A DNA stretch of 32,000 bases, taken from Candidatus Methylomirabilis oxygeniifera. GTDB lineage: Bacteria; Methylomirabilota; Methylomirabilia; Methylomirabilales; Methylomirabilaceae. Below are positions 8,307-32,000 of the stretch, piece by piece. A program made the position numbers and the translations under genes. Within the stretch, counting starts at the first letter, position 1. The number at the start of each line of letters is the position of its first letter. Below the pieces are notes generated by a model that made no database searches, had not been told where the DNA came from, and was given only the letters and a program-made list of their open reading frames with translations. Where the stretch lies: positions 2,220,001 through 2,252,000 of the forward strand of contig FP565575.1 of NCBI GenBank assembly GCA_000091165.1. The letters are read 5' to 3'.

Positions 8307-8336
8307 GCGCCTCTATTGGGGGGGAAGAGATAGGGA

Positions 8337-8360: not shown

Positions 8361-8390
8361 GCATGAGAAGAGCGGTATGTCGGAGGAGAG

Positions 8391-9983: not shown

Positions 9984-9993
9984 TACTCTCTAT

Positions 9994-16335: not shown

Positions 16336-16369
16336 GACCAGCCTTCATGCCCCCGATTAACGGATAGTT

Positions 16370-16483: not shown

Positions 16484-16785
16484 TCGTGACGAGCGGACGT
16501 CAGGGACGAGCTTCACATGCCTGATTCTGACGCTTGCGGTACCGTATTTCCCGTTGCGAAGCCGCGCAGCTATACGATATACTTCAGTTCTACCGCATAC
16601 CAATCCTGAGTCCGTCAACATCTACATCTGTTGAGGGGGCGGTATGATTCCGGAACCTACTGGTCGCTTCTGAGGATCCTCAATATTTTCCAATAAGGCC
16701 TTAATACGACTCATAGACTTCGTATCCCAGACGCAGTCATGCCATCAGCAGGAAAAGAGGCCACTGGACGTTAAAGGAGTGCGGA

Positions 16786-18543: not shown

Positions 18544-18628
18544 GACACTTGAAGCGGTTTGGATACCGGAGGCCGGCCCATGGAGTTCGCCGGACATGCG
18601 CGGTCACACCCCGTGTGAGGCCCGCCGG

Positions 18629-21502
18629 ATGAGTCTTCGAAAACTGTTATCTCACACGGTACTCGCCTACCCCAGAACTACACTAGTTGTCGCGGTGCTG
18701 CTTACGCTGCTCTCGGTCTGGGTGGCGATTGCGCGGTTGCGCTTTACCTCTACGCATCAGGCGATGTCCTCTCTTAGCGGTAGGGTCGGCCAGGTTCAGG
18801 AACGCTACAATCAGGCGTTCGGCGACCCGGACCAGGTCGTGATCGTCGTAGAGGCCGCGGATCAGGAACAGGCCAAGCGCTACGCCGCTGTCCTTGCAGG
18901 ACGACTGGAGGCTTCGGCGGATATCGAGGAGGCTATCTATCGCTTTGATCTTACGTCCCTGGAAGATCATTTTCTGATGTACCTGACCCCGCAGCAGCTC
19001 AACGACCTGCGGGATAAGCTTGAGGAACATGCCTCGCTCCTCGAGGAGCTGTCGGCCAAGCCAGGCATCAATCGCCTCTTTCAACTGATCCATCGCGAGA
19101 TCAGTTCGGCGTTGGTCGGTCGGCTGTTTACCGGCTTCCTGGGCGAAGAAGAAGAGGGCGAGGTCAAGCGCCCTGTAGAGCTTCAGCCGCTTATCGCGCT
19201 GCTGACGCAGCTCGAGGCGTGGGCGAGCGGTCCCAGGAGCTACACCTCGCCGTGGAAGCAGTTCATGGTCGAGGCCGACGAGAACGGCGACCGGGAAGGT
19301 TACCTGTGGTCCGACAACAAACAGCTCCTCTTCATCCTGGCCACCGTGAGGGCGGATCCGACAAGCCTGCACAAGTTTGAGCGGCCGATTCAATCGATCC
19401 GTGGGGAAATCCGGTCGCTGCAATCCCGCTATCCCGGGGTCAAAGCCGGGGTCACAGGAGGTCCCGCCCTCGAATACGATGAGGTGACCGCCGCACAACG
19501 GGATTCCGGGCTGATGACCTTCATCTCTCTCGGCGGTGTCACCCTGTTGGTAGCGGCAGTCTTTCGCGGCGTGCTCAGGCCGCTCATGGGTATGATAGCG
19601 CTCGTCATGGGGGTCTGTTGGGCTTTCGGGTTTGCCGCCGTAACGGTCGGTCATCTGAACATGATGTCGATGGTGTTGGCGCCGATGCTGATCGGCATCG
19701 GGATGGACTATGGGATCCATCTCGTGGCCAGGTACGAAGAGGAACGGGGCGCAGGCCATACCATTCAGGAGTCGCTGGAACAGGCCTTCGAAGGCGCCGG
19801 TCCCGGGATTCTGCACGCGGCCATCACGACCTCCGTCGCTCTCTTTGCCCTTCTACTCACAGGAGTCAGTGTGTTGCAGGAGCTGGGTCTGATCACCGGG
19901 TTCGGCCTGCTGCTGACGCTGGTTTCGACCTTTGTCGTGTTGCCCCCACTGCTGTTGTTATGGGATAGGCGACCTGCCACGGATGGTTCGGCGGAGAACG
20001 CCGCAGCGACCGTCAAAGGGCATGTCATGAGAGGGAAGGTCGGCGACATCCGCTGGCCGCTGCCATACTTGCCGAAGCCCCCGGATTTTATGGAATTCTG
20101 GTATCGCCGGCCCCGCACCGTCCTGCTCCTGTCGGCGATCGGGACGCTGGCAGCCTTGTATGCGATGAGTCGCATCGAATTCGACGGCAACGTCCTCCAT
20201 CTTCAGGCGGAAGGCACCGAATCGGTAGACTGGGAGCTGAAGATTATCCGGCAGTCTGAGCGTTCGACCATCTATGGGGTGATCCTGGCTGAGAACCTCG
20301 AGGAGGTAAGAACCAAGACGAAAGCCCTCGAAGCCCTCGCCTCAGTGAGCAAGGTGGAGAGTATCGCAATGCTCATCCCGGAGGACCAAGAGCGCAAGCT
20401 CCGATTGGCTCACGATCTCAGACCGCTCCTGGCCAAGGCGGACCTCTCGACACTGCCCCAGCCGGGACCGGTTGATCTCGATGAGCTGCTGAATACGCTA
20501 CAGCGGATCAAGGCCAAGATGTTGACGGCCGAGGATGCGGAGAAGTGGACCGGGAAGGACAAACCGCCCCTGGAGCAGATGACGCAAGTACGACGCCTGG
20601 TCGATCGGTTTGAGCGGCGGATCCAGCAACGTGGCTACGCAGAGGTTCGTCGTAGGCTTGCCGTCTTCCAGGATAAACTGTTCGACGATTTCTCTGATAA
20701 GATGTCGCTCCTCGGCAGGGCGGTCGCCTCCGGTCCGGTCGAGCTCGATGATGTGCCGAACGATCTGAAAAAGCAGTTTGTGGGGCGGGACGGGTCGTAC
20801 CTGATTCGGGTCTACCCCAAAGGCGACCCGTGGGAGTTTGCCTCGCAGATTACGTTTGTCCGCGAGTTACGATCAGTGGATCCAGACGCCGTCGGCGACC
20901 CGGTCAAGGGGTTCGAGGTGATCTCGGCGATGAAGCGCGGGTATCAGCAGGTGGCGATCTATGCCTTGATCGGAGTGGCAGCGCTGTTCTTGCTGAATCT
21001 ACGAGATCTACGCTACTTCCTGCTGGCGAAGGTTCCGCTGTTGATCGGAGCCATCTGGATCGCCGGCCTGATGGAACTCTTTCATTTGAAGTTCAATCTG
21101 GCCAACCTGATCATCATTCCGCTGATTGTGGCGCCCGGGGTGGAGAACGGCCTGTTGATCATCCACCGCTTCCGAGAAGAGGGAGAAGCCGCCATACTGC
21201 CAAAGAGCATCGGGAAGGGCGTAGTGCTCTCATCGCTGACAACCATGATCGGCTTCGGCAGCCTCCTTATGGCTCACCACCGCGGCGCATACAGCATCGG
21301 TCTTTTGGTGACGCTGGGGGTGGGGGCCGTCCTGCTGGTCTCGGTGGTGGTGCTGCCGGCCCTCCTCACTGTTGTTGCCAGACACCCATCAAAAGAGGCG
21401 ATTTCAGGCTCCGGGCTCCTGGCTGAAGGTGCTCCCGGACAACTTGAACCGAGCGCTCAGAATATAGAACAGGACACGATATTCAACTCAAAGGAGAAGT
21501 AA
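18629..21502 (+). CDS. MMPL/RND-superfamily lipid exporter (HpnN-like architecture)
   Basis: Two repeats, each a TM helix plus a large soluble domain plus a 5-TM bundle (e.g. GFAAVTVGHLNMMSMVLAPMLIGIGMDYGIHL and LIIIPLIVAPGVENGLLIIHRF). The start is uncertain: ATG at 18629 with GAGG 8 nt upstream, or ATG at 18596. Confidence 0.8.
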   Translation: MSLRKLLSHTVLAYPRTTLVVAVLLTLLSVWVAIARLRFTSTHQAMSSLSGRVGQVQERYNQAFGDPDQVVIVVEAADQEQAKRYAAVLAGRLEASADIEEAIYRFDLTSLEDHFLMYLTPQQLNDLRDKLEEHASLLEELSAKPGINRLFQLIHREISSALVGRLFTGFLGEEEEGEVKRPVELQPLIALLTQLEAWASGPRSYTSPWKQFMVEADENGDREGYLWSDNKQLLFILATVRADPTSLHKFERPIQSIRGEIRSLQSRYPGVKAGVTGGPALEYDEVTAAQRDSGLMTFISLGGVTLLVAAVFRGVLRPLMGMIALVMGVCWAFGFAAVTVGHLNMMSMVLAPMLIGIGMDYGIHLVARYEEERGAGHTIQESLEQAFEGAGPGILHAAITTSVALFALLLTGVSVLQELGLITGFGLLLTLVSTFVVLPPLLLLWDRRPATDGSAENAAATVKGHVMRGKVGDIRWPLPYLPKPPDFMEFWYRRPRTVLLLSAIGTLAALYAMSRIEFDGNVLHLQAEGTESVDWELKIIRQSERSTIYGVILAENLEEVRTKTKALEALASVSKVESIAMLIPEDQERKLRLAHDLRPLLAKADLSTLPQPGPVDLDELLNTLQRIKAKMLTAEDAEKWTGKDKPPLEQMTQVRRLVDRFERRIQQRGYAEVRRRLAVFQDKLFDDFSDKMSLLGRAVASGPVELDDVPNDLKKQFVGRDGSYLIRVYPKGDPWEFASQITFVRELRSVDPDAVGDPVKGFEVISAMKRGYQQVAIYALIGVAALFLLNLRDLRYFLLAKVPLLIGAIWIAGLMELFHLKFNLANLIIIPLIVAPGVENGLLIIHRFREEGEAAILPKSIGKGVVLSSLTTMIGFGSLLMAHHRGAYSIGLLVTLGVGAVLLVSVVVLPALLTVVARHPSKEAISGSGLLAEGAPGQLEPSAQNIEQDTIFNSKEK

Positions 21503-21503
21503 C

Positions 21504-22160
21504 ATGTCAAGCGCGATGAGGGTATCCGTGCGAACAGGACTGCTGAGTGGAATGCTGACCCTGGGATTGTCGGTCTTTGCGGGGTTCGCCTTCGCGAGCG
21601 GAACCACCGATCAGGTGAAGACCGAACTGGATCACCTTACCGCTATCGTACAGGACCCCTCCTTACAAGAGAAGGAAAAAGAAGCGGCAAGGAAGTCGAT
21701 GGTGAAGGAGCGGATCCTGCGCTGGTTCGACCTGCAGGAGATGGCGCGCCGCTCGCTGGCCAACCACTGGACGAAGCGATCAGGTCAGGAACGGAAGGAT
21801 TTCGTCGAGCTGTTCGGGGATCTGTTTGTAGAATCTTACACTACATTGGTGGTCGATCATCTTGGCGACCAGCAGGTGACCTACCTCTCGGAACAGATCG
21901 ATACGCAAGACGCCATCGTCAAGACCAAGTTCCTCTCGAAACGGAACGAGCCCACCTTTGTTGACTTTACCCTCCTTCGTCGAGGCAACGCCTGGGTTCC
22001 GTACGATGTCGTGATCGACGAGGTCAGCATCGTGGGCAATTACCGCGTCCAGTTCGATAAGGTCATCCGGGATCAGTCATACGAAGCCCTCGTCAAGAAG
22101 ATGCGGCTCAAGCGAGAGTCGGAGGGGTTGGGATCGACGGCAAAGAAGAAGTCGATGTAG
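21504..22160 (+). CDS. mlaC: MlaC/Ttg2D-family periplasmic lipid-binding protein
   Basis: Signal peptide. Family-like blocks RRSLANHW, ERKDFVELFGDLFVESYT, VPYDVVIDEVSIVGNYRVQFDKVI. The start is 1 nt after the MMPL stop. Confidence 0.75.
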   Translation: MSSAMRVSVRTGLLSGMLTLGLSVFAGFAFASGTTDQVKTELDHLTAIVQDPSLQEKEKEAARKSMVKERILRWFDLQEMARRSLANHWTKRSGQERKDFVELFGDLFVESYTTLVVDHLGDQQVTYLSEQIDTQDAIVKTKFLSKRNEPTFVDFTLLRRGNAWVPYDVVIDEVSIVGNYRVQFDKVIRDQSYEALVKKMRLKRESEGLGSTAKKKSM

Positions 22161-22194: not shown

Positions 22195-23568
22195 TCAAGC
22201 TCCGCCCATGCCCGTTCGATAGGCATCTCCCGATTCGTAGTAATCAAGTCCGGAGTGGTCAAGCACTTCTTCCCCGACCAGGATGCGCAAGGTGTTGGTC
22301 AGCTTCAGGTGCTGGATGAACAGGTCATGCTCCGGCTTCAGATCGGCTCGGGCCATCGGAGACTTAAAGTAGAACGACAGCCACTCCTGAATACCCGATA
22401 ATCCGGCCCGTTGCGCCAGGTCCAGAAACAGAGCCAGATCGAGAACCACCGGCGCCGCCAGGATGGAATCCCGACAGAGGAAGTTGATCTTGATCTGCAT
22501 CGGCTGGCCGAGCCAACCGAAGATATCGATGTTATCCCACCCCTCCTTAGCATCACCGCGAGGCGGATAATACTCAATGCGGACCTTGTGGAAGACCTGT
22601 CCATACAGTTCCGGATAGAGCTCCGGCTGCACAATTGCCTCCAGCACCGAGCCCTTACTGACCTCTTTGGTTCTGAACGATCCCTGATCGTCCAACACCT
22701 CACCGTCCCGGTTTCCCAGGATGTTGGTAGAAAACCAGCCGCTCAACCCCAGCATCTTGGCCTTCAACCCGGGCGCGACCACGGTTTTCAGAAAGGTCTG
22801 GCCAGTCTTGAAATCCTTTCCGGCGATCGGAACGTGGCGCTGATGAGCGAATTCGACCAGCGCCGGGATATCTACCGTCAAACTGGGTGAGCCGTTCGCA
22901 AAGGGGACACCGGCTGAGATGGCGGCATAGGCATAGATCATGCTTGAGGAAATTTCCGGAGCGTTTGCCTTCAGGCCGGCCTCAAAGGCTTCAATAGTCT
23001 CGTGTACCGGAGCCGGCTGCATGAAGACCTCTGTCGATCCGCACCAGATCATGACGACCCGCTGCGTCCCCTCACTTCGGCGAAATGCCTCGATATCTTC
23101 GATCAGCATATCTGCTAGGTGCTTCTTGCTGAGACCTGACTTCAGGTTCGTCCCCGAGAGCCTTCGCACATAGGCTTGGTCAAAGACTGCCGGCCATGGT
23201 CTCACCGCTTCCAGTTGGTCTTTGACCTGGTCCAGCAACTCTTTGGGTAGAACCCCGGCATGGCACGCGGTCTGATAGGCGTCCTCGGGAAAAATATCCC
23301 AGCCGCCGAAGACCAGATTGTCCAGGTCGGCGAGGGGAACGACCTCCTTAATAGGCGCATAGCGAGGACTGGTCCGCTTGCCCAGGCGCATTCGCTGCAT
23401 CTGCGTGAGGGAGCCATACGGTTGAGACAGCCCCTTGTTGATCAAGTGGACTCCTGCAATGAGCGTAGTGGCCACCGCCCCCAACCCTGGGATCAGTACA
23501 CCCAACTTGCCCTGAGGAGACGCAATCTCTCGCTTTAATTCTGGATAGAATGAACTCCTTTGGCTCAT
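22195..23568 (-). CDS. ino1: myo-Inositol-1-phosphate (inositol-3-phosphate) synthase
   Basis: GLGAVATT Rossmann, GKDFKTGQT, STNILGNRDG, FLCRDSILAAPVVLDL. The start overlaps the upstream stop as ATGA. Confidence 0.9.
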   Translation of the reverse strand: MSQRSSFYPELKREIASPQGKLGVLIPGLGAVATTLIAGVHLINKGLSQPYGSLTQMQRMRLGKRTSPRYAPIKEVVPLADLDNLVFGGWDIFPEDAYQTACHAGVLPKELLDQVKDQLEAVRPWPAVFDQAYVRRLSGTNLKSGLSKKHLADMLIEDIEAFRRSEGTQRVVMIWCGSTEVFMQPAPVHETIEAFEAGLKANAPEISSSMIYAYAAISAGVPFANGSPSLTVDIPALVEFAHQRHVPIAGKDFKTGQTFLKTVVAPGLKAKMLGLSGWFSTNILGNRDGEVLDDQGSFRTKEVSKGSVLEAIVQPELYPELYGQVFHKVRIEYYPPRGDAKEGWDNIDIFGWLGQPMQIKINFLCRDSILAAPVVLDLALFLDLAQRAGLSGIQEWLSFYFKSPMARADLKPEHDLFIQHLKLTNTLRILVGEEVLDHSGLDYYESGDAYRTGMGGA

Positions 23569-24764
23569 GCCTGTACCCCTTCCCTATATGAGTTCCACAA
23601 TACGACTATGAAAAAGATCGGCGCTCCGATCGCCGAAAGCATCAGAAACCAATGTGCCTTTCCAAACGCTGAGACAATCACCACGAGGTAGATGAAATCC
23701 CGCCTCGCAAGGGCATCGGCAAGCATAGAGACGCGGGATGGGGCTTCGGAGGTGGTGGTGGACGTAAAAAGCGGCCCTTCGGCGGTTTTGTGCCGCATGG
23801 TCTGTCGATAGACGAATCCAGCCGACAGAAGGCCTCCCGCCGTTGCCGAACAGGCCAGCAGCAGGGGTAACCGCGCCCCGTCAGCCATCCACCATCCCAG
23901 ACCGATGCACACAAATACCGCCGAGTGAACGACATTATCCCCCCAGAAATCCAGGAGACCGCCAAAACGGGATTCCAGATATTTGAGTCTGGCAATCTCT
24001 CCGTCACAACCGTCCAGAATCGAATGCAGGAGGAACAGCAGCGCGCCGACCAGTTGATACGCAGGCGCAGATGAGAAGAAGAACAGCGCCCCCACGACAC
24101 CGATTGCCACGCTCACGGCGGTCATCTGGTTCGGGGTGATACCAGTGCCCACGATGCGCCGCGTGACCGCCAGTGAGATCTTCCGTTCGACATGCCTCGA
24201 CATAAAGCCTTCCGTATCTTTCACCAAGCCCTGCAGGAGCCACCGCTCGGCATAAGGGAGATCCGCTCGACTCGAGACCCTGACCCAGCGTCCGTCATCC
24301 ATGAGGATGCCCACTCTTTGGTAGGTCCGCTCCAGTTCGGAGAACAGGGACAGGTCGTCGTTCGCACGCTCGATCACTGACAGAAGGGTCTTCGGGTCCG
24401 CCGTCTCAACGGCAGCGATCCCGCTGGTGGGGGCACATATCGCCTCAGCATGTAACGGCATCTCGATTAGATGCGTCAGCAGCGAGGGCTGGGGAAGGAG
24501 GCGAGCAGTCAGCACCAGGATACGACCAAGGGGTTGATGACCGGTCAACCTGGCTGGAGGCAGTAGCACCGCCTTCGTTCCCTCCAGCAGCTTCCCACAC
24601 TCGAATGATCCATTATCCACAACCAGGATATCCTGACAGCCGGCACGAGAGGCTACCAGAACAATCCGTCGAAGCAACGGCAGGCCCAATACCACCGTAT
24701 CCGGGCCAACCTCACCCGAGCCCTTTGAGATCACGATTATGACTGTGGCTGCCTGCTTGCCCAT
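23565..24764 (-). CDS. IPCT/DIPPS-like protein: degenerate nucleotidyltransferase-like N-domain fused to a CDP-alcohol phosphotransferase
   Basis: Exact D-G-x2-A-R-x8-G-x3-D-x3-D signature in DGEIARLKYLESRFGGLLDFWGDNVVH. Six predicted TM helices. The soluble N-domain (~170 aa) lacks the GxGxR(L) NTP loop and reads ISKGSGE instead. Confidence 0.8.
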   Translation of the reverse strand: MGKQAATVIIVISKGSGEVGPDTVVLGLPLLRRIVLVASRAGCQDILVVDNGSFECGKLLEGTKAVLLPPARLTGHQPLGRILVLTARLLPQPSLLTHLIEMPLHAEAICAPTSGIAAVETADPKTLLSVIERANDDLSLFSELERTYQRVGILMDDGRWVRVSSRADLPYAERWLLQGLVKDTEGFMSRHVERKISLAVTRRIVGTGITPNQMTAVSVAIGVVGALFFFSSAPAYQLVGALLFLLHSILDGCDGEIARLKYLESRFGGLLDFWGDNVVHSAVFVCIGLGWWMADGARLPLLLACSATAGGLLSAGFVYRQTMRHKTAEGPLFTSTTTSEAPSRVSMLADALARRDFIYLVVIVSAFGKAHWFLMLSAIGAPIFFIVVLWNSYREGVQA

Positions 24765-24778
24765 CCGAAAGAAAGCGT

Positions 24779-24814
24779 TCAGCGATCAGCCATCAGCTCT
24801 TCGCTGATCGCTGA
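24779..24814. repeat. Perfect 12-bp inverted repeat TCAGCGATCAGC-N12-GCTGATCGCTGA spanning the dehydrogenase stop codon
   Basis: Read directly. The stop (24786-24788) lies in the left arm. The next start codon is at 24764. Confidence 0.85.
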
Positions 24815-25868
24815 CGGCTAACACCTTACTCCCCTGGCTGTGCGATTCCTTGGCGAGGTGCAGAAGCTGCACGCAGCGCGACGCCATGGTCAGATTCTCC
24901 CCGCCTCGTTCAGCAACCGACATCTCCCGCAGAAAATCGTCCCTCACCTGGCGAAACCACTCCGGGTGATGGGAACCCTGCGAGAGCGGCTGCTCAAATG
25001 TCCAACGCTGCTCGCCCCCTTCGCGTTTCAGCACCAGAGTGCCGTCCTCTATCCGGATAGTCCCACAGGTTCCTTCGATAACAGCGCAATTACTCCGTGA
25101 AGACGAGGCCCACGTCAAAAGAATATTAGCTTCGGCTGCAGACGACCTCAGTTGAACGCTCGCCGTATCCTCAACCGGCCATTCCGGATGCCGGCGCTTT
25201 TCCAGCGTCGCAGTGATCGTCCGAGGCTCCTCCCCAAGCCAATCCAACACGATATACAGCGCGTGGTAGCCGTGATCGAGCAGGATGCCGCCGCCGGCGA
25301 TAGCCGGATCCAGCCGCCAGTTGCCCGTCCCAAGCATCGTCGAAGGATCGGGTGTGGCGCTTTCGACGGGACTTGGGAGCGACTGCACCGCGATCGACGG
25401 TTCGCGTCTGTAAACGTGCCAGCTTACATACTGCACAGTCCCGATCTGTCCTTGCCGGATCAGTGTCGTCGCCTGCATGACAATCGGAGCATACCGCCAG
25501 TTGTGGACCGTATAGAGAATACGGCCGCTTTCCGCCCGGGCATCTCGCACCAGCCGCAGCTCGTCCGGGGTGAGCACGAGCGGCTTTTCGCACAGCACAT
25601 GCAACCCTCGGCTTAAAGCCAGCCGTATCAGGGATGCGTGCGTTCCAGGGGGTGTACAGATATCGACGAAATCGATGGCCTCGGCAGCCAACATCGCCGA
25701 CACGTCGGTGTAGAGCCTGGCCCCTGGAAGACGCGATTGCTCCTGAGCGAGCCTGGATTCAACGGCGTCAGCGGCGGCAATAATCCGGGCCCGGTCGCAT
25801 CCTTCCCATCCAGGCAGATGCCCGTTCACCGCCACATTGCCCAGACCGATAATAGCGCCGTTCAACAT
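24786..25868 (-). CDS. Gfo/Idh/MocA-family NAD(P)-dependent oxidoreductase (inositol-dehydrogenase-like)
   Basis: N-terminal IIGLGNVA Rossmann motif, the CEKPL motif, and the family's C-terminal alpha/beta domain. Confidence 0.85.
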   Translation of the reverse strand: MLNGAIIGLGNVAVNGHLPGWEGCDRARIIAAADAVESRLAQEQSRLPGARLYTDVSAMLAAEAIDFVDICTPPGTHASLIRLALSRGLHVLCEKPLVLTPDELRLVRDARAESGRILYTVHNWRYAPIVMQATTLIRQGQIGTVQYVSWHVYRREPSIAVQSLPSPVESATPDPSTMLGTGNWRLDPAIAGGGILLDHGYHALYIVLDWLGEEPRTITATLEKRRHPEWPVEDTASVQLRSSAAEANILLTWASSSRSNCAVIEGTCGTIRIEDGTLVLKREGGEQRWTFEQPLSQGSHHPEWFRQVRDDFLREMSVAERGGENLTMASRCVQLLHLAKESHSQGSKVLAVSDQRRADG

Positions 25869-25884
25869 GCTTAAAAACAGGGTC

Positions 25885-25966
25885 TAGGGTGTAGAGAAAA
25901 ACCGGCGATTCTTCTCACTCCTCTACCCTCTACCCTAAACCCTCTCTTCATCCCCTATACCCTGTC
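25885..25966. repeat. Heptamer-periodic inverted array (TAGGGTGTAG ... CTCTACC CTCTACC CTAAACC ... CCCCTATACCCT)
   Basis: Read directly. It shares the 10-mer TAGGGTGTAG and the 12-mer CCCCTATACCCT with the element at 28184-28267. The right end overlaps the last codons and stop of the aminotransferase. Confidence 0.8.
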
Positions 25967-27273
25967 TTATTGAGCTCGGCAAAGGCCTGATCGAGGATAG
26001 CCAGACCTTCCAATGCCTGCTGTTCAGTGATGATGAGAGGCGGGTTGATCCGGATGTTGTAGGAATAGCACATGGCCAGCAGCCCCCGTTTGAGGCAGCT
26101 CTGAAACAGCTTCTGGGTGAGAGATTTCGGAAGCGGCTCCTTGGTCTGCCTGTCCTTGACCAGTTCTATGCCAAGTAAGAGCCCTCGACCACGCACATCG
26201 CCGATAAACGGGTATTTCTCCTTCATTGCTTCCAGTTGCTTCAGCATGACCGCGCCGACACGCTTGGCATTCGCGACAAGCCGTTCCTTCAAGATGACCT
26301 CGAGGGCAGCGAGTCCGGCTGTTGCGGCAAGCGGATTGCCTCCATAGCTTGAGGAACTTCCGCTCGGATTGCTGAAGGGTTTGTTCGCCATCAGTTCCTG
26401 TGTCGAGATCACCCCGCTGACCGGGAACCCGCCGCCCATTCCCTTTCCCACTGTCATCACGTCCGGCACCATCGGCTCGTGATCGCACCCCCACATCGAA
26501 CCGGTGCGGCCGAAGCCCGTCAGCATCTCATCGGCAATCAATAGGGCACCGCACTCCTTGGCAATCGTCTGCACCGCGCTCAAGAATCCTGGGGGCGGAA
26601 TGACGTTTCCGGCAGTCCCCTGAATCGGCTCCACGATGATCGCAGCGATCTCACCCTGGGTCTGATAGCGGATCACCTCGCGCAAGAAGTCCGCACAGGC
26701 AAGACCGCAATCGGGATAGCGAAGCTTCAAGGGACAGCGATAGCAGTTGGCGTATGGGGCGCTGTAGAGGCCGGGTACGAACGGTCCCAACTGCTTCTTA
26801 AAATCATCCCCCAGCAGCCCCAGGACCCCGCCTGTCTTACCATGAAACGCGCCCCAAAACCCGACGAACTCGAACTTCTTCGTGGCCGACTTGGCCAGTC
26901 GGAAGGCAGCCTCGACCGCCTCCGCCCCACCGGAAAACATCTGGATCCGCTTCAGCCGTCCCGGTGTGATCGATGCCAGCAGCGTGAGAAACCGGGCCCG
27001 GTTTTCGGTGGTGAAGCTGCCGAACGTCAGCCGTTCGATCTGGGCCTTCATGGCCTCGACATAGTGCGGGTGCGTATACCCGATACTCCCCACACCGATT
27101 CCGGCCATGAAATCGAGGTATCGGTTGCCGTCCTCATCGGTCAGGGTACACCCTTCCCCTCTCGCCATCGCCAACCCGGAATACAGCGCTATCGACTGTA
27201 GGCCCGGCGCCATATGGCGTTGCTCGCGGGCAACAATCGCCTTCGACCGTTTTCCAGGAATGTGTCGCTTCAT
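25948..27273 (-). CDS. Class III PLP-dependent aminotransferase
   Basis: DEMLTGFGRTG, and the PLP lysine in MTVGKGMGGGFP. The fold resembles GABA/omega-aminotransferases. The ATG at 27273 overlaps the upstream stop as ATGA. The track start at 27309 lies inside the upstream gene. Confidence 0.9.
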   Translation of the reverse strand: MKRHIPGKRSKAIVAREQRHMAPGLQSIALYSGLAMARGEGCTLTDEDGNRYLDFMAGIGVGSIGYTHPHYVEAMKAQIERLTFGSFTTENRARFLTLLASITPGRLKRIQMFSGGAEAVEAAFRLAKSATKKFEFVGFWGAFHGKTGGVLGLLGDDFKKQLGPFVPGLYSAPYANCYRCPLKLRYPDCGLACADFLREVIRYQTQGEIAAIIVEPIQGTAGNVIPPPGFLSAVQTIAKECGALLIADEMLTGFGRTGSMWGCDHEPMVPDVMTVGKGMGGGFPVSGVISTQELMANKPFSNPSGSSSSYGGNPLAATAGLAALEVILKERLVANAKRVGAVMLKQLEAMKEKYPFIGDVRGRGLLLGIELVKDRQTKEPLPKSLTQKLFQSCLKRGLLAMCYSYNIRINPPLIITEQQALEGLAILDQAFAELNKTGYRG

Positions 27274-28157
27274 TGGAGCGCTCCCCTCCTTACGCGATGC
27301 AGCAGCCATGTGGCGATCCGGGAAGCAGCCTCCTCGCGAAACAACGCAAACGACGGCCAGGCATTGATGTCGATGAGGAATATCTCCCCGCGAGGCGTGA
27401 CGATGGCATCGCCTCCATACACCTCCAGACTAAGGGCTAGTGCCGCACGCTGGGTAATGGCCTGCAAGGCCTCTTCAGAAAATGGGTACCTGTTGAGCTC
27501 CTGGTCTCGATGGTAGAACCAGCGAAACCATCGCTCCTGCCGATTCTCACAGTCTGGTCCGCCTACCCCGTAAAACTTGATCAGATCTCCAGGAACGTGT
27601 CGCTGCAGAACGGCACGAGCAATCCCCCTGGTGTTGAGCGCGACTAGCCTGTCCTGCAACTCCTCTGAAGATCGTATCAATTCAACATCCCCCGTTTGGG
27701 TATTGTGCACGTCGGCCCGCTTAACCCAGATCGGGAAGAGGTCCGGCCAACGCTCGATCGGCGACGGATCCCGCTCGGATGGGTTGCACGAAATGACCTG
27801 ACTCTCCGGGATCGGAGTTCCTGATGCGGTCAGCAGGGTGATCATCCGATCTCGATAGGTGTTCAGGACAGCCTCCAAAGGATTGACGTGCGGGATACCT
27901 CTCATCTCCAGCGGCCCAAGTACGCGAAGGGCCTCCAGCCGCTCGCACATCAGGAACACGAGCGACGGCAAAGGGTCTGCCATGAGTACGGCCCCTGGGT
28001 CGCCGGCCTCGCCGAGTTCGTCCGGCCCCTTGAGGCTGACCTGGTAGCCGGCCGCCTCGATATGCTTAGCGACGAGCCGCAGGATCTCCGTATCGTCGAA
28101 CTCCCGACCCGGCGAGTGTTGCCGTTCTCGAAATATCCCCAAAAGGTGTGGTATCAT
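27270..28157 (-). CDS. ATP-grasp protein, ITPK1 (inositol-tris/tetrakisphosphate kinase)-like rather than RimK-like
   Basis: FPIWVKRADVHNTQTGDVELI, DLIKFYGVGG, LSLEVYGGDAIVTPRGEIFLIDINAWPSF. The ATG at 28157 is preceded by GGAGG at 9 nt. The track start at 28160 is a TTG. Confidence 0.7.
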   Translation of the reverse strand: MIPHLLGIFRERQHSPGREFDDTEILRLVAKHIEAAGYQVSLKGPDELGEAGDPGAVLMADPLPSLVFLMCERLEALRVLGPLEMRGIPHVNPLEAVLNTYRDRMITLLTASGTPIPESQVISCNPSERDPSPIERWPDLFPIWVKRADVHNTQTGDVELIRSSEELQDRLVALNTRGIARAVLQRHVPGDLIKFYGVGGPDCENRQERWFRWFYHRDQELNRYPFSEEALQAITQRAALALSLEVYGGDAIVTPRGEIFLIDINAWPSFALFREEAASRIATWLLHRVRRGALQ

Positions 28158-28183
28158 CAAGCACTGCCTCCGCGCACAAAGCA

Positions 28184-28267
28184 GGGTTTAGGGTGTAGCG
28201 TGGCGGGTGGCGGGAAAAGCAAGGATTTTAGGACCATCCTTCTACCCGAACCCCTATACCCTACACC
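28184..28267. repeat. 84-nt element of 12 phased heptamers forming an inverted array
   Basis: Read directly: GGGTTTA GGGTGTA GCGTGGC GGGTGGC GGGAAAA GCAAGGA TTTTAGG ACCATCC TTCTACC CGAACCC CTATACC CTACACC. The outer arms pair at 13 of 15 positions. There is an inner AAGGAT/ATCCTT stem. The right end overlaps the nucleotidyltransferase stop. Confidence 0.85.
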
Positions 28268-28970
28268 CTTCTTTACGTAGAAGGGCTTCAGCCAATTGAA
28301 GGTCCTCGGCCCGATCGACATCGATGACCCGATCTATCACTACCCCATAGACCGGCTCCCCCTCGGTGACCAGCCACGTCAAAAAGTCACGAAGCCGGCC
28401 CAGCGTAGAAGGGTGGGGAGCCTGCGAAAAAATGGCGCCGGATACCAGATAGAGTCCGGCGGTCACCACATCACCCGAGGCGCCACCGATGGCCGTCACG
28501 CGCCCGGAAGGATCGAGGTTCACCCAGAGGGGCTTCTCGTCGGCTACGAACGGTGTAACGGCAAGGACGACAGAAGCTTGACGGCATGATATCGCTTGAT
28601 CGACAAATCGGTGAAACGCCGGCTCCGGACAGATCCAGTCCACAGTGGACATAAGAACACGGCCCGGACCGGATCGCCTGCCAACCTCCCAGAAGCTTTC
28701 ATACGACGAGCGTGTCGTTTTTACGATGCACTGAATATCAAGGCTCGGGAAACGCTCCCGGACAAATGTCGCGCACTCCCGATCGTCCTCGTTGAAGATG
28801 ATCCGTAGCTGCGTAATACCGGTCTTCACAAAATTGCTTACCACCCGCTCAATCAGCGGGATATCGGCAATGGGTACCATCGACTTCGGCATCCTCAAAC
28901 CGTCCCGTTTCAACCGGGACCCTTCCCCTGCCGCAATAATGCCCCCCGTTATGGTTGTGGGCGCGTTCAC
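28254..28970 (-). CDS. Nucleotidyltransferase (NTP_transferase/MobA-like; candidate cytidylyltransferase)
   Basis: Intact GGIIAAGEGSRL...MPKSMVPI signature. The GTG start overlaps the HAD stop as GTGA. Confidence 0.8.
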   Translation of the reverse strand: MNAPTTITGGIIAAGEGSRLKRDGLRMPKSMVPIADIPLIERVVSNFVKTGITQLRIIFNEDDRECATFVRERFPSLDIQCIVKTTRSSYESFWEVGRRSGPGRVLMSTVDWICPEPAFHRFVDQAISCRQASVVLAVTPFVADEKPLWVNLDPSGRVTAIGGASGDVVTAGLYLVSGAIFSQAPHPSTLGRLRDFLTWLVTEGEPVYGVVIDRVIDVDRAEDLQLAEALLRKEGCRV

Positions 28971-29659
28971 AGGAGTATCTCTCGAAGATCCGCGAAGGAC
29001 TTGATCGCAAGGTCATCGGGGCAGCAGGGCGCAAGAGGGCCGGAGTGGTCTGAGACCAGCCAGATATGGGGCATCCCCAGACCCTTCGCCCCCTTCATAT
29101 CTCGAGGCAACGAGTCTCCGACGAATATCGCCTCTTGCGGGTCCAGTTGCAACGCCGTCAGCGCAACCTGGAAGATTCTTGGGTCCGGTTTGGTGAACCC
29201 GACGCAGGCCGAGTCGACCATGACGCTCATCAATGAGGCGACTCCTGTCTCGATGCAGACCTGTTCAAGATTTCCGTAGAAGTTCGAGACGATGCCGAGC
29301 CGAAATCGCGCCGACAGCTCGCGCAGTGTCTCAAGATTGGCGCGAATCTTATCCAACGAGTCCTGCATAAACCGGTCGCACAGACGCGACGCCAATTCCG
29401 GATCAGCAATATTCAATGCGTCCAGCACGCCGGTGGCCAGGAGCAAGACGCTCTCCTGAAACGAGCAGCCTGAAAGCCTCCGCGCCACCAGTGCATCATC
29501 GGCAGCATAGAACGCCCGATCGTATCGATCCCGGCCTACCCTCACATATTCCGCGAGGTAGAGCGGATAGAATCTGTCTTTCCAGGGGATTCCATCGGCA
29601 TCAAGGGTGCCTCCGAAGTCGAGCAGGACCGCCTTCGTCGAGCTGTGGACGGCCATCAT
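28967..29659 (-). CDS. HAD-superfamily subfamily IA hydrolase
   Basis: Motif I LLDFGGTLD, motif II LGIVSN, motif III TKPD, motif IV FVGDSLPRD. The ATG at 29659 overlaps the upstream stop as ATGA. Confidence 0.8.
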   Translation of the reverse strand: MMAVHSSTKAVLLDFGGTLDADGIPWKDRFYPLYLAEYVRVGRDRYDRAFYAADDALVARRLSGCSFQESVLLLATGVLDALNIADPELASRLCDRFMQDSLDKIRANLETLRELSARFRLGIVSNFYGNLEQVCIETGVASLMSVMVDSACVGFTKPDPRIFQVALTALQLDPQEAIFVGDSLPRDMKGAKGLGMPHIWLVSDHSGPLAPCCPDDLAIKSFADLREILL

Positions 29660-30672
29660 CCCGCAACCTCCCCCGGCGCTCTCCCGATTCCCAGCTTTAT
29701 TGCAAGCAGGATGAGCAGGCCGGGAATAGCCCATGTCACCTCTCTTCCCCGGCGAATAATACTATAGACGGCGCCCTGCGCAGCGGGCAACCCCAAGACT
29801 GAGAAGACCGCGACTCGCACTGTTTCAGCGCTTCCGACCCGCCCCGGGATAAAGAAGATGATCGTATTCAGCGTCATTGCCAGACTTTCTACCGCCACTG
29901 CCGTCCCAAGGCTCGGCTCTGCCGACAGTAACTGCAGTACGACGTACGTCTCGAGCAGACCTCCACACCAGCCCAGCAAACAGAAAAACGTCGCCCAGTA
30001 GAATACCGGCATACGGGTCTTATAGAAGAGTGCAAGCCACCGATCCAACGACGCAGTAGCATGCCATTCGGGCTTGATCTGCTCCGGCTTGATCCCGATT
30101 TTTACCAACCCGCGGATCAATGCCCCGAAGGCTCGCCTCTTCAGTGCCCAGAAGGCGGCCACAACGACGGCCCCCATCCCCGCCGGCAGTGCAAGCGCGG
30201 CAACCCACAGTCCCGTAGGAAGCGCGAACTGGGCCACAGCAATACTCAGACCCAGGCTGAGGAATAAGACCTGCGCCACGATTTCCGCATGCTTGTGGAC
30301 CATGATCGAGGTCACCGACCGGCTGAATCCGACCGACCTGCTGAGCAGATGGGCCTTAACAGGTTCTCCGGCCAGGTTGGCAGGCGGCACAAAATAGTTG
30401 ATAGAATCTCCAACAAGATAGACGCCGAACATCCGCCAATATCCGATCCGTCTGGCCCTCGAGCCGATCACGACCCACCATCCGGCCATGAAGGCCATCT
30501 GCGCAAAGAGGTACAGGACAACCAACAGAAAGAACCATTTCCCGATCACCGCGATATTCGCCCGAATCGCGGGCCACCCGATCTTCCCGCATAGCCAGAC
30601 GATTCCGACAAGCCCGGTAAGGATGAGCAGGGATCGCAGTGCAGGCTTCAGCCGTTGCAGGCTGCTTGTCAT
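29656..30672 (-). CDS. UPF0104 / LPG_synthase_TM (MprF flippase-domain-like) integral membrane protein
   Basis: About 8 TM helices. Family-like GDSINYFVPPANLAGEPVKA and IPGRVGSAE loops. The start is uncertain: ATG at 30672 (preferred, no overlap) or 30744 (32-nt overlap with the upstream gene). Confidence 0.7.
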   Translation of the reverse strand: MTSSLQRLKPALRSLLILTGLVGIVWLCGKIGWPAIRANIAVIGKWFFLLVVLYLFAQMAFMAGWWVVIGSRARRIGYWRMFGVYLVGDSINYFVPPANLAGEPVKAHLLSRSVGFSRSVTSIMVHKHAEIVAQVLFLSLGLSIAVAQFALPTGLWVAALALPAGMGAVVVAAFWALKRRAFGALIRGLVKIGIKPEQIKPEWHATASLDRWLALFYKTRMPVFYWATFFCLLGWCGGLLETYVVLQLLSAEPSLGTAVAVESLAMTLNTIIFFIPGRVGSAETVRVAVFSVLGLPAAQGAVYSIIRRGREVTWAIPGLLILLAIKLGIGRAPGEVAG

Positions 30673-30712: not shown

Positions 30713-32000
30713 TTACAGTTGCTCCATGAAGGCGGCAATCTCATCGAGCTTCACATTGCGTACGACGATCTCAGGCGTATAGATAACCTCGTCTGCCGCC
30801 CAGACCAAGGTCCCCTTGACCTCCTTGCCGACCGCGACAATGTGAGAGAGGATCGAGTGGATATTGTCGTTGATTCGCACCGTGTTCGGTTTCAGCGGCG
30901 CTGCGATCCGCCCGTCCTTGATAATGTACGAGTCGCCGACGACGGTGCAGGTGAAGTCACCCTCCCGCAGCCCATTGATGGGATACGTATACCAGATCCG
31001 ACCGATCAGCAGACCGTCTTTGACGGTGGCGATCAACTCCTCGAGGCTCTGGTCCCCACCCTGTACGACAGCGTTGGTGGAGGCAATACCGGGCTGGACA
31101 CCGAACTGCCGGCCGCCCCCTGCCCAGAACCGAAAACCGTTTCGCGGCACGATGGCGCTGCCGTACTGATTCGGGTCTGCCCCCAGTTTCTCGGTACTCC
31201 TGGGATCTTTGACGATCCGCTGATGCTCGTAATAGTTCGCTAACAGCCCGACCAGCTTACCCCGCTGGATCAGCCGTGTTTTCCCGGTTGGTAGTCCTTC
31301 GCAGGTGATCCCCTTGCTGCCCATCAGCCCGCGCTGCGCACCGTGATCGTACAGCGTCAACTGCTTCGACGCAACGCGCTTGCCGAGTCGTCCCATGAAC
31401 GCGGAGCTGTCGCTGTAAAAGTTGCCGAGGCTGAGGGAGGGCAGGATCAGATTATTCAGGAGGTCGGCTACTGGTTGACGTCCAAAGATGACCGTATACT
31501 CCCCACCCTTGATCCGCTCCCCGCCAATCGCCGCAAGGGCGTTCTGTGCGGCCTCTACACCGGCGTCGTCAGTAAACTGATCCAGGCGGGTACCGGCAGA
31601 ACAGCCGCTGCCCTTGGAAGCTTTGGCCTCCACCATAGCGGTAATGAAGGCCATGATCAGCGTTGATTCGTCGGTCTGGACCTCCGGCATGGCCGTTGAG
31701 GCGATAGCAATTCGCTCCTGCTGGATGGTCACGTCGCCGCCGACGATGAGGCCCAACTCCCTGATCCGCGTCTCGTCGCCCGCCAGCTCCTGTAGTCTGG
31801 GAGAGTTGAGAAACGTCTTCAGGCTCCCTCGCAACACCCGCCAGCCGACCTCCACCAACTCCTCATCCCGGATCTTCATGAGTTTCGGATCATGGTAGCG
31901 ACGGAGCCTTCTCCGCTCACCCGTGGGTCTCGGCAGCGACGAGAATTCAGGATCGGCAACAGCGCCGCGCCTGGCCTTCTCAAGGGCCCTTTTGACCCCC
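30713..32000 (-). CDS. TldD/PmbA-family metalloprotease-like protein (N-terminus beyond the window end)
   Basis: The C-terminal half is typical of the family (GLLIGRIWYTYPINGLREGDFTC, ITCEGLPTGK). My translation upstream of the track Met stays open to position 32000 (...VKRALEKARRGAVADPEFSSLPRPTGERRRLRRYHDPKLMKIRDEE...). The gene is therefore 5'-truncated by the window. Confidence 0.75.
   Translation of the reverse strand, partial: GVKRALEKARRGAVADPEFSSLPRPTGERRRLRRYHDPKLMKIRDEELVEVGWRVLRGSLKTFLNSPRLQELAGDETRIRELGLIVGGDVTIQQERIAIASTAMPEVQTDESTLIMAFITAMVEAKASKGSGCSAGTRLDQFTDDAGVEAAQNALAAIGGERIKGGEYTVIFGRQPVADLLNNLILPSLSLGNFYSDSSAFMGRLGKRVASKQLTLYDHGAQRGLMGSKGITCEGLPTGKTRLIQRGKLVGLLANYYEHQRIVKDPRSTEKLGADPNQYGSAIVPRNGFRFWAGGGRQFGVQPGIASTNAVVQGGDQSLEELIATVKDGLLIGRIWYTYPINGLREGDFTCTVVGDSYIIKDGRIAAPLKPNTVRINDNIHSILSHIVAVGKEVKGTLVWAADEVIYTPEIVVRNVKLDEIAAFMEQL

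Follow-up and report, generated by a model that had tools for sequence, protein, structure and literature searches.

What product is made by an operon that joins a gene for inositol phosphate synthesis to genes for a dehydrogenase, an aminotransferase, an ATP-grasp enzyme, a nucleotidyltransferase, a CDP-alcohol phosphotransferase and a flippase-like membrane protein? The question is raised by positions 22195-30672 of a 32,000-nucleotide stretch of DNA (the window) from the methane oxidizer Candidatus Methylomirabilis oxyfera, where eight open reading frames, all confirmed, lie on the minus strand. They are labeled G1 to G8 in minus-strand order, from 30672 down to 22195 (Table 1). The best explanation, to which we give a probability of about 0.45, is that G1-G8 form one cassette whose product is an aminocyclitol phospho-head group, most likely carried on a membrane lipid.

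Table 1. Genes, spacers and convergent neighbors of the operon in the window
Feature	Position	Strand	Size	Family match or remark
G1, flippase-like membrane protein, HpnL-like	29656-30672	-	338 aa	PF03706 1.9e-29
G2, HAD-IA family protein	28967-29659	-	230 aa	PF00702 8.6e-16
G3, small nucleotidyltransferase	28254-28970	-	238 aa	PF12804 1.1e-6; GTG start
G3-G4 spacer	28158-28253	-		REP-like palindrome of TAGGGTn heptads; element spans 28182-28270
G4, ATP-grasp enzyme, unnamed family	27270-28157	-	295 aa	profile search and fold
G5, class III PLP aminotransferase	25948-27273	-	441 aa	PF00202 2.7e-103
G5-G6 spacer	25869-25947	-		second REP-like palindrome; element spans 25878-25964
G6, Gfo/Idh/MocA NAD(P) oxidoreductase	24786-25868	-	360 aa	PF01408 1.2e-20; PF22725 1.8e-19
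G7, two-domain CDP-alcohol phosphotransferase	23565-24764	-	399 aa	CDP-OH_P_transf 6.2e-12
G8, myo-inositol-1-phosphate (inositol-3-phosphate) synthase (MIPS)	22195-23568	-	457 aa	PF07994 2.7e-97; PF01658 1.1e-29
HpnN-like RND/MMPL lipid transporter	18596-21502	+		TIGR03480 9.7e-163; convergent neighbor
MlaC-like periplasmic lipid-binding protein	21504-22160	+		PF05494 2.4e-36; convergent neighbor

Arrangement and conservation of the cassette

The initial annotation described eight minus-strand genes with four start-stop overlaps, and all four were found again: ATGA at 29656-29659 (G1-G2), GTGA at 28967-28970 (G2-G3), and ATGA at both 27270-27273 (G4-G5) and 23565-23568 (G7-G8), each on the minus strand and each joining the stop of one gene to the start of the next. 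The short structured spacers reported there are likewise present, as gaps of 96 nt (G3-G4), 79 nt (G5-G6) and 21 nt (G6-G7); the two larger ones contain hairpin repeats with folding energies of -46.7 kcal/mol (z = -2.2) and -32.8 kcal/mol (z = -3.7). In most other lineages the G3-G4 junction is a 4-nt overlap, in contrast to the palindrome-bearing spacer found here. The coupled starts of G1 (30672), G2 (29659) and G5 (27273) fit the N-termini of homologs, and the G1 ATG lies 40 nt past the TldD stop. For G4 the ORF lister gave a TTG at 28160, but the gene starts at the ATG at 28157. Terminator-like sites within the operon were at chance level, with 9 found and 7.9 expected.

Cassette loci occur in Methylomirabilota/Rokubacteria, Nitrospirae, Elusimicrobia, Verrucomicrobia and Acidobacteriota, and 60-71 loci, representing at least six phylum-level groups, keep the order G2-G3-G4-G5-G6-G7. 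The gene arrangement is far beyond chance: other phyla show the same order and, for the most part, the same 4-nt overlaps. The HAD and nucleotidyltransferase genes adjoin the ATP-grasp gene wherever the region is visible (71/71 loci), and the aminotransferase, dehydrogenase and CDP-alcohol transferase genes come next in 60 of 61, so that the co-occurrence on which the initial annotation had staked its pathway extends well outside this genome. MIPS co-occurrence beyond the source genome is also usual, across five further phylum-level groups: overall, 23 of 48 loci have the gene attached, but nearly all of those from Nitrospirae, Elusimicrobia, Verrucomicrobia and Acidobacteriota do, and there it directly follows G7. 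In Rokubacteria-type loci a second, short-type MIPS gene adjoins G7.

The ATP-grasp gene also stays with the HAD, nucleotidyltransferase and transferase genes in two variant loci, L019 and L081, that lack those for the dehydrogenase and aminotransferase. Hence amination is an added step, and the ATP-grasp enzyme need not act on an amine. Natural fusions bind the cassette genes into a single pathway. Nucleotidyltransferase-ATP-grasp (G3-G4) fusions occur in L033, L037, L039 and L063 and, at 50% identity, in at least 8 separate clusters, and HAD-nucleotidyltransferase-ATP-grasp (P0265) and ATP-grasp-CDP-alcohol transferase (P0250) fusions were also found. The single-cassette reading thus draws on the four overlaps, terminators no commoner than chance, the conserved order, the fusions, and the catalytic motifs of G3, G4 and G7, which are intact.

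These observations bear on the least likely of the readings considered, namely that the product is plain di-myo-inositol phosphate (DIP) or phosphatidylinositol, with the dehydrogenase, aminotransferase and ATP-grasp genes as unrelated co-residents. MIPS, nucleotidyltransferase, transferase and HAD alone would suffice for DIP-type chemistry, and G7 is annotated in UniRef and by JGI as 'CDP-L-myo-inositol myo-inositolphosphotransferase'. However, the three extra genes sit between those for the nucleotidyltransferase and the transferase, a position conserved across phyla in 60 of 61 loci. Many lineages have the ATP-grasp gene fused to that for the nucleotidyltransferase, the HAD protein or the transferase, and G7 scores only 98 bits on the DIPPS equivalog NF041135, against a cut-off of 580 bits.

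Predicted functions of the enzymes

Checks with HMMs and structures upheld the initial family assignments gene by gene, except for the ITPK1-like label of the ATP-grasp protein. G8 (69-77% identical to its counterparts in other phyla) is shown by family membership to be a MIPS, predicted to convert glucose-6-phosphate to 1L-myo-inositol-1-phosphate. G2 had been proposed to dephosphorylate this product. Its HAD membership stands, but motif I reads DFGGTLD rather than DxDxT in 14 of 14 aligned orthologs, in which D14, G16, G17, T18, S125, K157, D182 and D187 are invariant. Because the Asp+2 general acid/base is replaced by Gly in all of them, a role as a plain inositol-phosphate phosphatase is uncertain.

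G3 retains the GxGxRL...K signature, and its family profile can be aligned from end to end with the IPCT structures 2xme (2.6e-6), 4mnd (1.2e-5) and 4jd0. Family membership marks it as a small nucleotidyltransferase whose catalytic motifs are intact, comparable in size and layout to inositol-1-phosphate cytidylyltransferases. G7 combines a degenerate nucleotidyltransferase-fold N-domain, which has lost the GxGxR motif, with six TM helices, and carries the DxxDGxxAR...GxxxDxxxD signature, P-N-x-x-T, and invariant R355 and K369. Its sequence matches in the PDB are 4o6m (1.9e-21) and 4mnd (1e-18), and its AlphaFold2 model (pLDDT 84) ranks 4mnd above AF2299 and AF2299 above the PIP synthases. By family membership, G7 can be assigned to the membrane CDP-alcohol phosphotransferases of the IPCT-DIPPS/AF2299 type. 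On the bifunctional IPCT/DIPPS model NF041135, G3 covers positions 5-219 and G7 covers 177-413, so that between them the two tile it.

G4 has no Pfam match and is recognized only through profile search and fold; its homologs number 2136 at 90% clustering and form 423 clusters at 50% identity (E <= 1e-30). The ITPK1-like description fared poorly: about 200 residues of the family profile match RimK, at 1e-6, whereas the match to ITPK1 covers 43 residues and reaches only 0.006, and the best Foldseek matches of the AlphaFold2 model (pLDDT 83) are D-Ala-D-Ala ligases and ArgX. By profile and modeled fold, then, G4 is nearer to RimK and the D-Ala-D-Ala ligases than to ITPK1. Its ATP/Mg residues K146, D250, D263 and N265 are invariant.

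G6 finds its best NCBIfam match in inositol 2-dehydrogenase, but scores 74 bits where the cut-off is 355. G5, 61-78% identical between phyla, is nearest to GABA-, putrescine- and omega-type transaminases among solved structures. The inosose amination of aminoglycoside pathways uses a DegT-type aminotransferase; the initial caveat that G5 belongs instead to class III agrees with its PF00202 match.

Lipid or soluble product

According to the best explanation, the cassette would carry out CDP-inositol (DIP-type) chemistry with an added tailoring branch. The DIP-type core is suggested by the joint tiling of NF041135 and by the whole-chain fold match of G7 to IPCT-DIPPS. Acting on inositol or inositol phosphate, G6 would oxidize one hydroxyl of the ring, and G5 would transaminate the resulting ketone to an inosamine. 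G4 might use ATP in one of two ways: it could restore a phosphate to the free aminocyclitol, which G3 would then accept, or it could join a carboxylate or an amino acid to the newly introduced amine. G3 would yield a CDP-activated cyclitol, G7 would form the phosphodiester, and G2 would act on an intermediate or product that carries phosphate. The outcome would be a new phosphodiester-linked aminocyclitol head group. G1 would move the predicted lipid across the inner membrane, and in Methylomirabilota/Rokubacteria the lipid would then be passed to HpnN/Mla-type envelope lipid transport.

The hints of a lipid come from several sources. To our knowledge, lipid flipping is the sole characterized role of PF03706 proteins, and a PF03706 gene is translationally coupled to the cassette here and is present in 31 of the 48 loci with enough flank and in the minimal variant L081. 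Some loci have HpnN, MlaC, MlaEF, a PagL-like gene or squalene-hopene cyclase as neighbors, and five gene kinds are common to a predicted inositol-lipid cluster of Bacteroides vulgatus (see below). Against the best explanation stand the Asp+2 missing from G2, the class III rather than DegT-type aminotransferase, the variants L019 and L081 that do without dehydrogenase and aminotransferase, and the distribution of PF03706, which was not seen adjoining any Elusimicrobia cassette and adjoins just one of six in Verrucomicrobia.

The architecture of G7 is a further difficulty. The initial annotation had the transferase coupling to diacylglycerol or a second polyol, and the family survives scrutiny better than the first of these acceptors. 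The six-TM, two-domain architecture marks CDP-alcohol transferases with soluble acceptors (PMC4634129), and simple diacylglycerol transfer is therefore not the default reading for G7. CDP-diacylglycerol as donor would also make G3 superfluous, and G3 occurs in 71 of 71 loci. The enzymes nearest to G7 in sequence and fold, IPCT-DIPPS and AF2299, do not act on lipids, which favors a soluble acceptor and possibly a soluble product. Such a product, which we consider rather unlikely overall, would be a DIP-like phosphodiester, inosaminyl-phospho-inositol, serving as a zwitterionic compatible solute: G3 would make the CDP-(amino)cyclitol, G7 would transfer it to G8-derived inositol-1-phosphate as DIPPS does, G2 would remove the terminal phosphate, and G1 would be an accessory protein or exporter. 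The constant presence of a dedicated soluble nucleotidyltransferase fits this scheme, as does the translational coupling of G7 and G8 here and in most phyla, and R355 and K369 in TM5/6 of G7 could bind an acceptor phosphate. The same scheme has to contend with the PF03706 gene, with the lipid-transport and hopanoid genes that adjoin some loci, with a G2 that is not a canonical phosphatase, and with hosts from soil and groundwater, unlike the (hyper)thermophiles that are the only producers of DIP-type solutes we know of.

The neighboring genes also raise the very unlikely possibility of hopanoid modification, in which a cyclitol or aminocyclitol phospho-head group is placed on bacteriohopanepolyol or another non-glycerol lipid; G1 would then be an HpnL-type protein, and export would fall to HpnN. 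HpnL is the best NCBIfam match of G1 (TIGR03476, 2e-36), but its 126 bits are well under the 196-bit cut-off. The HpnN-like and MlaC-like genes that flank the operon in the window (18596-22160) are possibly associated with it, and four loci (L008, L009, L010 and L014) have the one-strand order MlaC-HpnN-MlaC-PagL-like-squalene-hopene cyclase-G1...G8, with the cyclase nearby in L067 as well. This linkage is nevertheless confined to Methylomirabilota/Rokubacteria, with the cyclase at five loci and HpnN or MlaC homologs at 10 of 38 full-flank loci. Six-TM CDP-alcohol transferases have no known lipid acceptors, and we know of no phospho-linked hopanoid that could serve as a precedent.

Relation to known systems

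The initial statement that no characterized pathway has this combination of genes applies to the full set, in that a literature search found no paper connecting it with any product; it does not extend to a five-gene subset. Bacteroides vulgatus makes inositol lipids, and MIPS, NTP transferase, CDP-alcohol transferase and HAD genes with a nearby PF03706 gene constitute an alternative inositol-lipid cluster predicted in this species and Prevotella, for which a CDP-inositol route was proposed (Heaver et al. 2022; PMC9246714). The five shared gene kinds are likened as kinds and not by sequence orthology; the Bacteroides/Prevotella cluster lacks the dehydrogenase, aminotransferase and ATP-grasp genes, and its own function is a prediction.

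The DIP pathway of hyperthermophiles consists of MIPS, IPCT, DIPPS and DIPP phosphatase, with the Archaeoglobus fulgidus IPCT-DIPPS available as PDB 4mnd. The operon resembles it in having MIPS, a small IPCT-like nucleotidyltransferase, a G7 membrane domain with the full CDP-alcohol signature and IPCT-DIPPS as best structural match, and a hydrolase gene that could serve for a terminal phosphate. It differs in that the nucleotidyltransferase is a separate gene, the G7 N-domain lacks GxGxR and G7 falls far under the equivalog cut-off, the hosts are mesophilic, and dehydrogenase, class III aminotransferase, ATP-grasp and PF03706 genes are added. AF2299 of A. fulgidus (PDB 4o6m), a CDP-alcohol phosphotransferase with a cytidylyltransferase-like domain and the top PDB sequence match of G7, shares the two-domain layout, six TM helices and a conserved juxtamembrane segment, although identity is only about 20% and AF2299 has no known physiological substrates. 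The PIP synthase and PIP phosphatase system of Mycobacterium and Bacteroides thetaiotaomicron also has a six-TM CDP-alcohol transferase, which takes inositol phosphate as its acceptor and whose product is then dephosphorylated. PIP synthase structures are the third-best fold matches of G7; these enzymes, however, use CDP-diacylglycerol, need no dedicated nucleotidyltransferase and lack the cytosolic N-domain.

Kanosamine is made by NtdC, NtdA and NtdB, and scyllo-inosamine by an inositol dehydrogenase and a StsC-type aminotransferase. The operon similarly pairs a Gfo/Idh/MocA dehydrogenase with a PLP aminotransferase and, like the Ntd system with its HAD enzyme acting on a phosphorylated substrate, includes a HAD protein. 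In contrast to these routes, its aminotransferase is of the GABA/omega-amine class III rather than DegT/StsC type, and it has no glycosyltransferases or other antibiotic-pathway genes.

In MprF a PF03706 flippase is joined to an aminoacyl-phosphatidylglycerol synthase, and in the operon a PF03706 protein is genetically coupled to head-group-modifying enzymes. Unlike MprF, G1 stands alone, there is no tRNA-dependent synthase domain, and the predicted ATP-grasp chemistry would be tRNA-independent. The cassette is a real, widespread and undescribed variant of CDP-inositol chemistry, and if G4 is an amino-acid ligase it would follow a logic analogous to that of MprF, in which modification of a head group is followed by flipping of the lipid.

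Organization of the operon

Eight genes succeed one another on the minus strand, in the order PF03706 flippase-like protein (G1), HAD enzyme (G2), small nucleotidyltransferase (G3), ATP-grasp enzyme (G4), class III aminotransferase (G5), Gfo/Idh/MocA dehydrogenase (G6), CDP-alcohol phosphotransferase (G7) and inositol-phosphate synthase (MIPS, G8). The initial annotation had described them as one operon with four start/stop overlaps, and all four are present: ATGA at G1/G2, G4/G5 and G7/G8, and GTGA at G2/G3. The N-termini of homologues agree with the coupled start codons. The other junctions are gaps of 96 nt (G3-G4), 79 nt (G5-G6) and 21 nt (G6-G7). Terminator-like sites within the operon occurred at chance level, and the promoter and terminator scans were uninformative.

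Strong hairpins are predicted in both longer spacers. Each of these spacers carries a REP-like palindrome of TAGGGTn heptads, a pattern that has 9 matches against 0.18 expected and that occurs in the window only at these two places. Most other lineages have a 4-nt overlap or a very short gap at the same junctions, which suggests lineage-specific insertion of the palindromes; an effect on mRNA stability or attenuation is possible.

Database entries CBE69680-CBE69684 of Candidatus Methylomirabilis oxyfera are identical to the window sequences, and the ATP-grasp entry is annotated there as a "conserved protein of unknown function". Composition gave no indication of recent horizontal acquisition, with GC content at 0.56-0.60 throughout. 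The adjacent TldD/PmbA gene was rejected as an operon member, since beyond close relatives of Methylomirabilis it does not adjoin the cassette. Scans of the window against Rfam and for tRNAs gave no match, including in a 1.2-kb segment that also lacks any ORF of at least 150 aa.

Coordinates of features in the window and in homologous loci (L numbers) fetched from other genomes
Sequence	Coordinates	Feature
Window	9777-11008	Segment from sigma-54 response regulator gene to nadA
Window	15568-18543	Glycerophosphodiester phosphodiesterase (GDPD) gene and AMP-forming acyl-CoA-synthetase-like gene, just upstream of HpnN-like gene
Window	22195-30672	Operon G1 to G8, minus strand
Window	25878-25964	REP-like element, extending into final codons of G5
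Window	28157	ATG start codon of G4
Window	28182-28270	REP-like element, extending into final codons of G3
Window	28967-29659	G2, HAD enzyme
Window	30713-31879	TldD/PmbA gene
L012	14365-15939	Gene for 523-aa membrane protein
L013 (Elusimicrobia)	7463-8578	GT4 glycosyltransferase gene, 39 nt upstream of HAD gene
L019	8554-12092	Four-gene cassette
L081	3902-6004	ATP-grasp-CDP-alcohol transferase fusion gene (protein P0250)
L008, L009, L010, L014	~4300-7300	Region with squalene-hopene cyclase gene
L067	3-1604	Squalene-hopene cyclase gene
L037, L039, L063, L067	~2200-7300	Second module, directly upstream of G7

Conservation, fusions and variant loci

A scan at the species level, with one genome per species, identified 259 carriers of the cassette, and 80 loci were fetched and compared by tblastn with the window proteins; the locus counts below refer to loci with enough flanking sequence to tell. 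At 90% clustering the G4 family comprises 2136 members, and at 50% clustering 423 clusters have E <= 1e-30. The HAD and nucleotidyltransferase genes lie beside the ATP-grasp gene in 71/71 loci, and the aminotransferase, dehydrogenase and transferase genes follow it in 60 of 61, so the gene neighbourhood is conserved across phyla. Furthermore, the 4-nt overlaps were found again in other phyla. The PF03706 gene is present in 31/48 loci and MIPS in 23/48, the latter including all visible Nitrospirae and Elusimicrobia loci, 5/6 from Verrucomicrobia and 3/4 from Acidobacteriota.

Several of these genes have become fused. Nucleotidyltransferase-ATP-grasp fusions occur in at least 8 distinct 50%-identity clusters, among them L033, with a 35-aa linker, and L037, L039 and L063, with a short one. 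One protein, P0265, is a HAD-nucleotidyltransferase-ATP-grasp triple fusion, and P0250 joins the ATP-grasp domain to a CDP-alcohol transferase, on a soil contig with a cassette made up only of the PF03706 gene, the HAD gene and the fusion gene. The minimal cassette of L019 has HAD, nucleotidyltransferase, ATP-grasp and transferase genes without dehydrogenase or aminotransferase; P0250 and P0265 likewise belong to variants that lack these two genes. These fusions and minimal variants argue that the invariant core is HAD, nucleotidyltransferase, ATP-grasp and transferase, and that dehydrogenase, aminotransferase and MIPS are a very common extension.

Rokubacteria-type loci have a CopD-like membrane protein and the PF03706 gene instead of the long MIPS. 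In L012 and 31 other loci of this type the gene after G7, at the place that MIPS occupies elsewhere, always encodes a membrane protein of 523 aa. Its N-terminal domain is CopD-like and its C-terminal half unassigned, and it has no counterpart in the window. The second module found in four loci directly upstream of G7 consists of a second nucleotidyltransferase, a second CDP-alcohol transferase (~30% identical to G7), a PF03706 protein and a short-type MIPS of 356 aa; these genomes therefore hold two CDP-alcohol systems in tandem.

The GT4 gene of L013 stands at the PF03706 place, a hint that Elusimicrobia glycosylate the product. The cassette was also seen on contigs labelled "Patescibacteria group bacterium" (L001, 96-97% identical to the window proteins) and "Nitrosotalea sp." (L036), most likely mis-binned contigs of Methylomirabilota/Rokubacteria. 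In two phyla, 10 loci have the alaS gene close to the cassette; its side and strand differ among them, and it was taken as chance synteny rather than as a functional partner.

The enzymes and their nearest relatives

Pfam and NCBIfam assign seven of the proteins to the families named in the initial annotation, the exception being its "ITPK1-like" label for G4. G8 matches both MIPS domains (PF07994, 2.7e-97; PF01658, 1.1e-29). G1 is a PF03706 protein, HpnL-like with a score under the HpnL cut-off; MprF fuses this flippase domain to an aminoacyl-PG synthase, whereas G1 has PF03706 alone and no aminoacyl-PG synthase domain was found in the operon. The scyllo-inosamine route of aminoglycoside and rhizopine chemistry uses an inositol dehydrogenase and a DegT/StsC-type aminotransferase, the latter being of fold type I and class V-like. 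The cassette differs on both counts: G6 reaches 74 bits where the iolG equivalog requires 355, and G5 matches PF00202 at 2.7e-103, in keeping with the earlier caveat that it is a class III enzyme and not of the DegT type.

The HAD-IA enzyme G2 keeps motifs II-IV (S125, K157, GDxxxD), but its motif I reads D-F-G-G-T-L-D in 14/14 aligned orthologues, with glycine at the Asp+2 general acid/base position of the HAD-phosphatase motif DxDx(T/V). Because this substitution is found in all 14, a phosphatase role for G2 is an assumption. Near the C-terminus, residues 212-213 form a nearly invariant Cys-Cys pair (PCCPxD), unusual among HAD-IA enzymes.

G4 had no match in a Pfam search. Its family profile matched RimK at 1e-6 over ~200 residues and, at 2e-5, the graspetide ligase entry 7drm. 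The match to ITPK1 reached only 0.006 and covered 43 residues; PF05770, the ITPK1 family, was matched by one of 12 family members (0.0019). The folds nearest to the AlphaFold2 model (pLDDT 83) are D-Ala-D-Ala ligases (Ddl) and ArgX (~1e-14, TM-scores 0.65-0.74), and ITPK1 is absent from the top 50. The family label ITPK1-like accordingly finds no support. A score of 20 bits on TIGR00768 lies well under the 143-bit cut-off, and G4 has no recognisable substrate residues in common with RimK/LysX/Ddl-type ligases. Since the ATP/Mg residues K146, D250, D263 and N265 are invariant, G4 is predicted to be an active ATP-grasp enzyme, a kinase or a ligase, that is not specifically ITPK1-like.

The transferase G7 resembles AF2299 and the cytidylyltransferase/DIPP synthase (IPCT-DIPPS) of the di-myo-inositol phosphate (DIP) pathway. 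Its membrane half matches AF2299 at 1.9e-21 and the A. fulgidus IPCT-DIPPS at 1e-18, and whole-chain fold ranking of its AlphaFold2 model (pLDDT 84) places IPCT-DIPPS (4mnd) best, then AF2299 (4o6m), then PIP synthases. The model has a beta/alpha domain (residues 1-177) with a fold matching nucleotidyltransferases, including RmlA and MurU, followed by six long helices to residue 397 and none after; G7 thus shares with AF2299 and IPCT-DIPPS both the N-domain fold with six TM helices and the family signature. That signature, D1xxD2GxxAR...GxxxD3xxxD4 with P(D/N)xx(T/S) at TM1, appears as DGCDGEIAR...GGLLDFWGD and PNQMT and is invariant in 13 orthologues. The GxGxR motif is missing from the G7 N-domain; G3 keeps a catalytic GxGxRL...K signature and aligns full-length to the IPCTs 2xme, 4mnd and 4jd0. 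The two proteins jointly tile the bifunctional IPCT/DIPPS model. The IPCT scores of G3 (~30 bits; 27 against the 580-bit cut-off of NF041135) are no better than its scores to sugar-1-phosphate nucleotidyltransferases. PIP synthase binds inositol phosphate through the arginines R153 and R191 (PMC4634129); sequence alignments of G7 with PIP synthase end before TM4, and within G7 R355 and K369 are conserved.

With G8 the operon holds the MIPS of the DIP pathway. G7 scores 98 bits against the 580-bit cut-off of NF041135, the DIPP synthase equivalog, although the CDP-alcohol signature and fold are there, and plain DIP or PI is the least probable product we considered. Clarke et al. noted that six TM helices are common to family members whose acceptor, for example inositol phosphate, is soluble, that lipid-acceptor enzymes have three or four additional helices, and that AF2299 and DIPPS do not process lipids (PMC4634129). 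A soluble, DIP-like amino-phosphodiester would fit the G7 architecture and the ever-present nucleotidyltransferase better than a lipid would; we regard it as a possible but rather unlikely product.

The product and its significance

The data support a single pathway in which CDP-inositol chemistry is extended by oxidation, transamination and an ATP-grasp step. From the gene families, intact catalytic motifs, coupling, cross-phylum conservation and fusions observed here, we infer its substrates, step order and product. The closest described system is the alternative inositol-lipid cluster predicted in Bacteroides and Prevotella by Heaver et al. 2022. There, genes for MIPS, for NTP and CDP-alcohol transferases and for a HAD hydrolase lie close to an LPG-synthase-like gene, and the hosts make inositol sphingolipids without PIP synthase (PMC9246714). 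Compared by domain content with the description of the Bacteroides vulgatus-type cluster, the window has all four of these genes and a nearby PF03706 gene. The literature searched yielded no paper combining MIPS, aminotransferase, ATP-grasp and CDP-alcohol transferase, none joining inosamine with CDP-alcohol, and nothing relevant on Methylomirabilis plus inositol, which agrees with the initial remark that no characterised pathway is known to have this gene combination.

The window has two genes convergent to the operon, which encode an HpnN-like RND transporter and a homologue of MlaC. L008, L009, L010 and L014 have the single-strand order MlaC-HpnN-MlaC-PagL-like-squalene-hopene cyclase-G1...G8, and L067 has the cyclase, MlaE, MlaF and MlaC upstream and HpnN downstream. 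HpnN/MlaC linkage was found only in Methylomirabilota/Rokubacteria, in 10/38 loci. In all five loci the cyclase gene directly precedes the cassette and shares its strand; the PagL-like gene encodes an outer-membrane protein. The GDPD and acyl-CoA-synthetase-like genes of the window may belong to a lipid-related neighbourhood, and in L074 an acyl-CoA-synthetase-like ligase gene likewise adjoins HpnN. Modification of hopanoids themselves is very improbable; it ranks, with plain DIP or PI, below the soluble and lipid-linked products.

A lipid-linked aminocyclitol phospho-head group is the product we favour, at a probability of about 0.45, because the PF03706 partner is persistent, envelope-lipid genes lie nearby and the Bacteroides cluster offers an analogy. 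The scheme of the initial annotation remains a reasonable member of the candidate set, its weakest links being the ITPK1 label, the phosphatase step and the diacylglycerol acceptor. A more elaborate and distinctly doubtful version of the lipid-linked product is a widespread new class of envelope lipid, with an inosamine formed from the head group of an inositol phospholipid. An ATP-grasp ligase would next acylate this amine with an amino acid, as a tRNA-independent functional analogue of MprF-type aminoacylation, and the PF03706 and HpnN/Mla-like proteins would export the lipid. If this version were true, such lipids would occur widely in Methylomirabilota/Rokubacteria, Nitrospirota, Acidobacteriota, Verrucomicrobiota and Elusimicrobiota.

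The cassette is present in at least 259 species-level genomes, and at 90% clustering its ATP-grasp marker counts over 2000 homologues, most of them from abundant, barely cultivated phyla of soil, groundwater and methane-cycling environments. Candidatus Methylomirabilis oxyfera, the source of the window, is kept in enrichment culture, and the question of the product is therefore directly testable. Identifying it would give bacterial biochemistry a novel head group or solute derived from inositol, would provide a function for a sizeable unnamed ATP-grasp family and for AF2299-type transferases, and would possibly yield a lipid biomarker containing N and P for nitrite-dependent methane oxidisers of the Methylomirabilis type.
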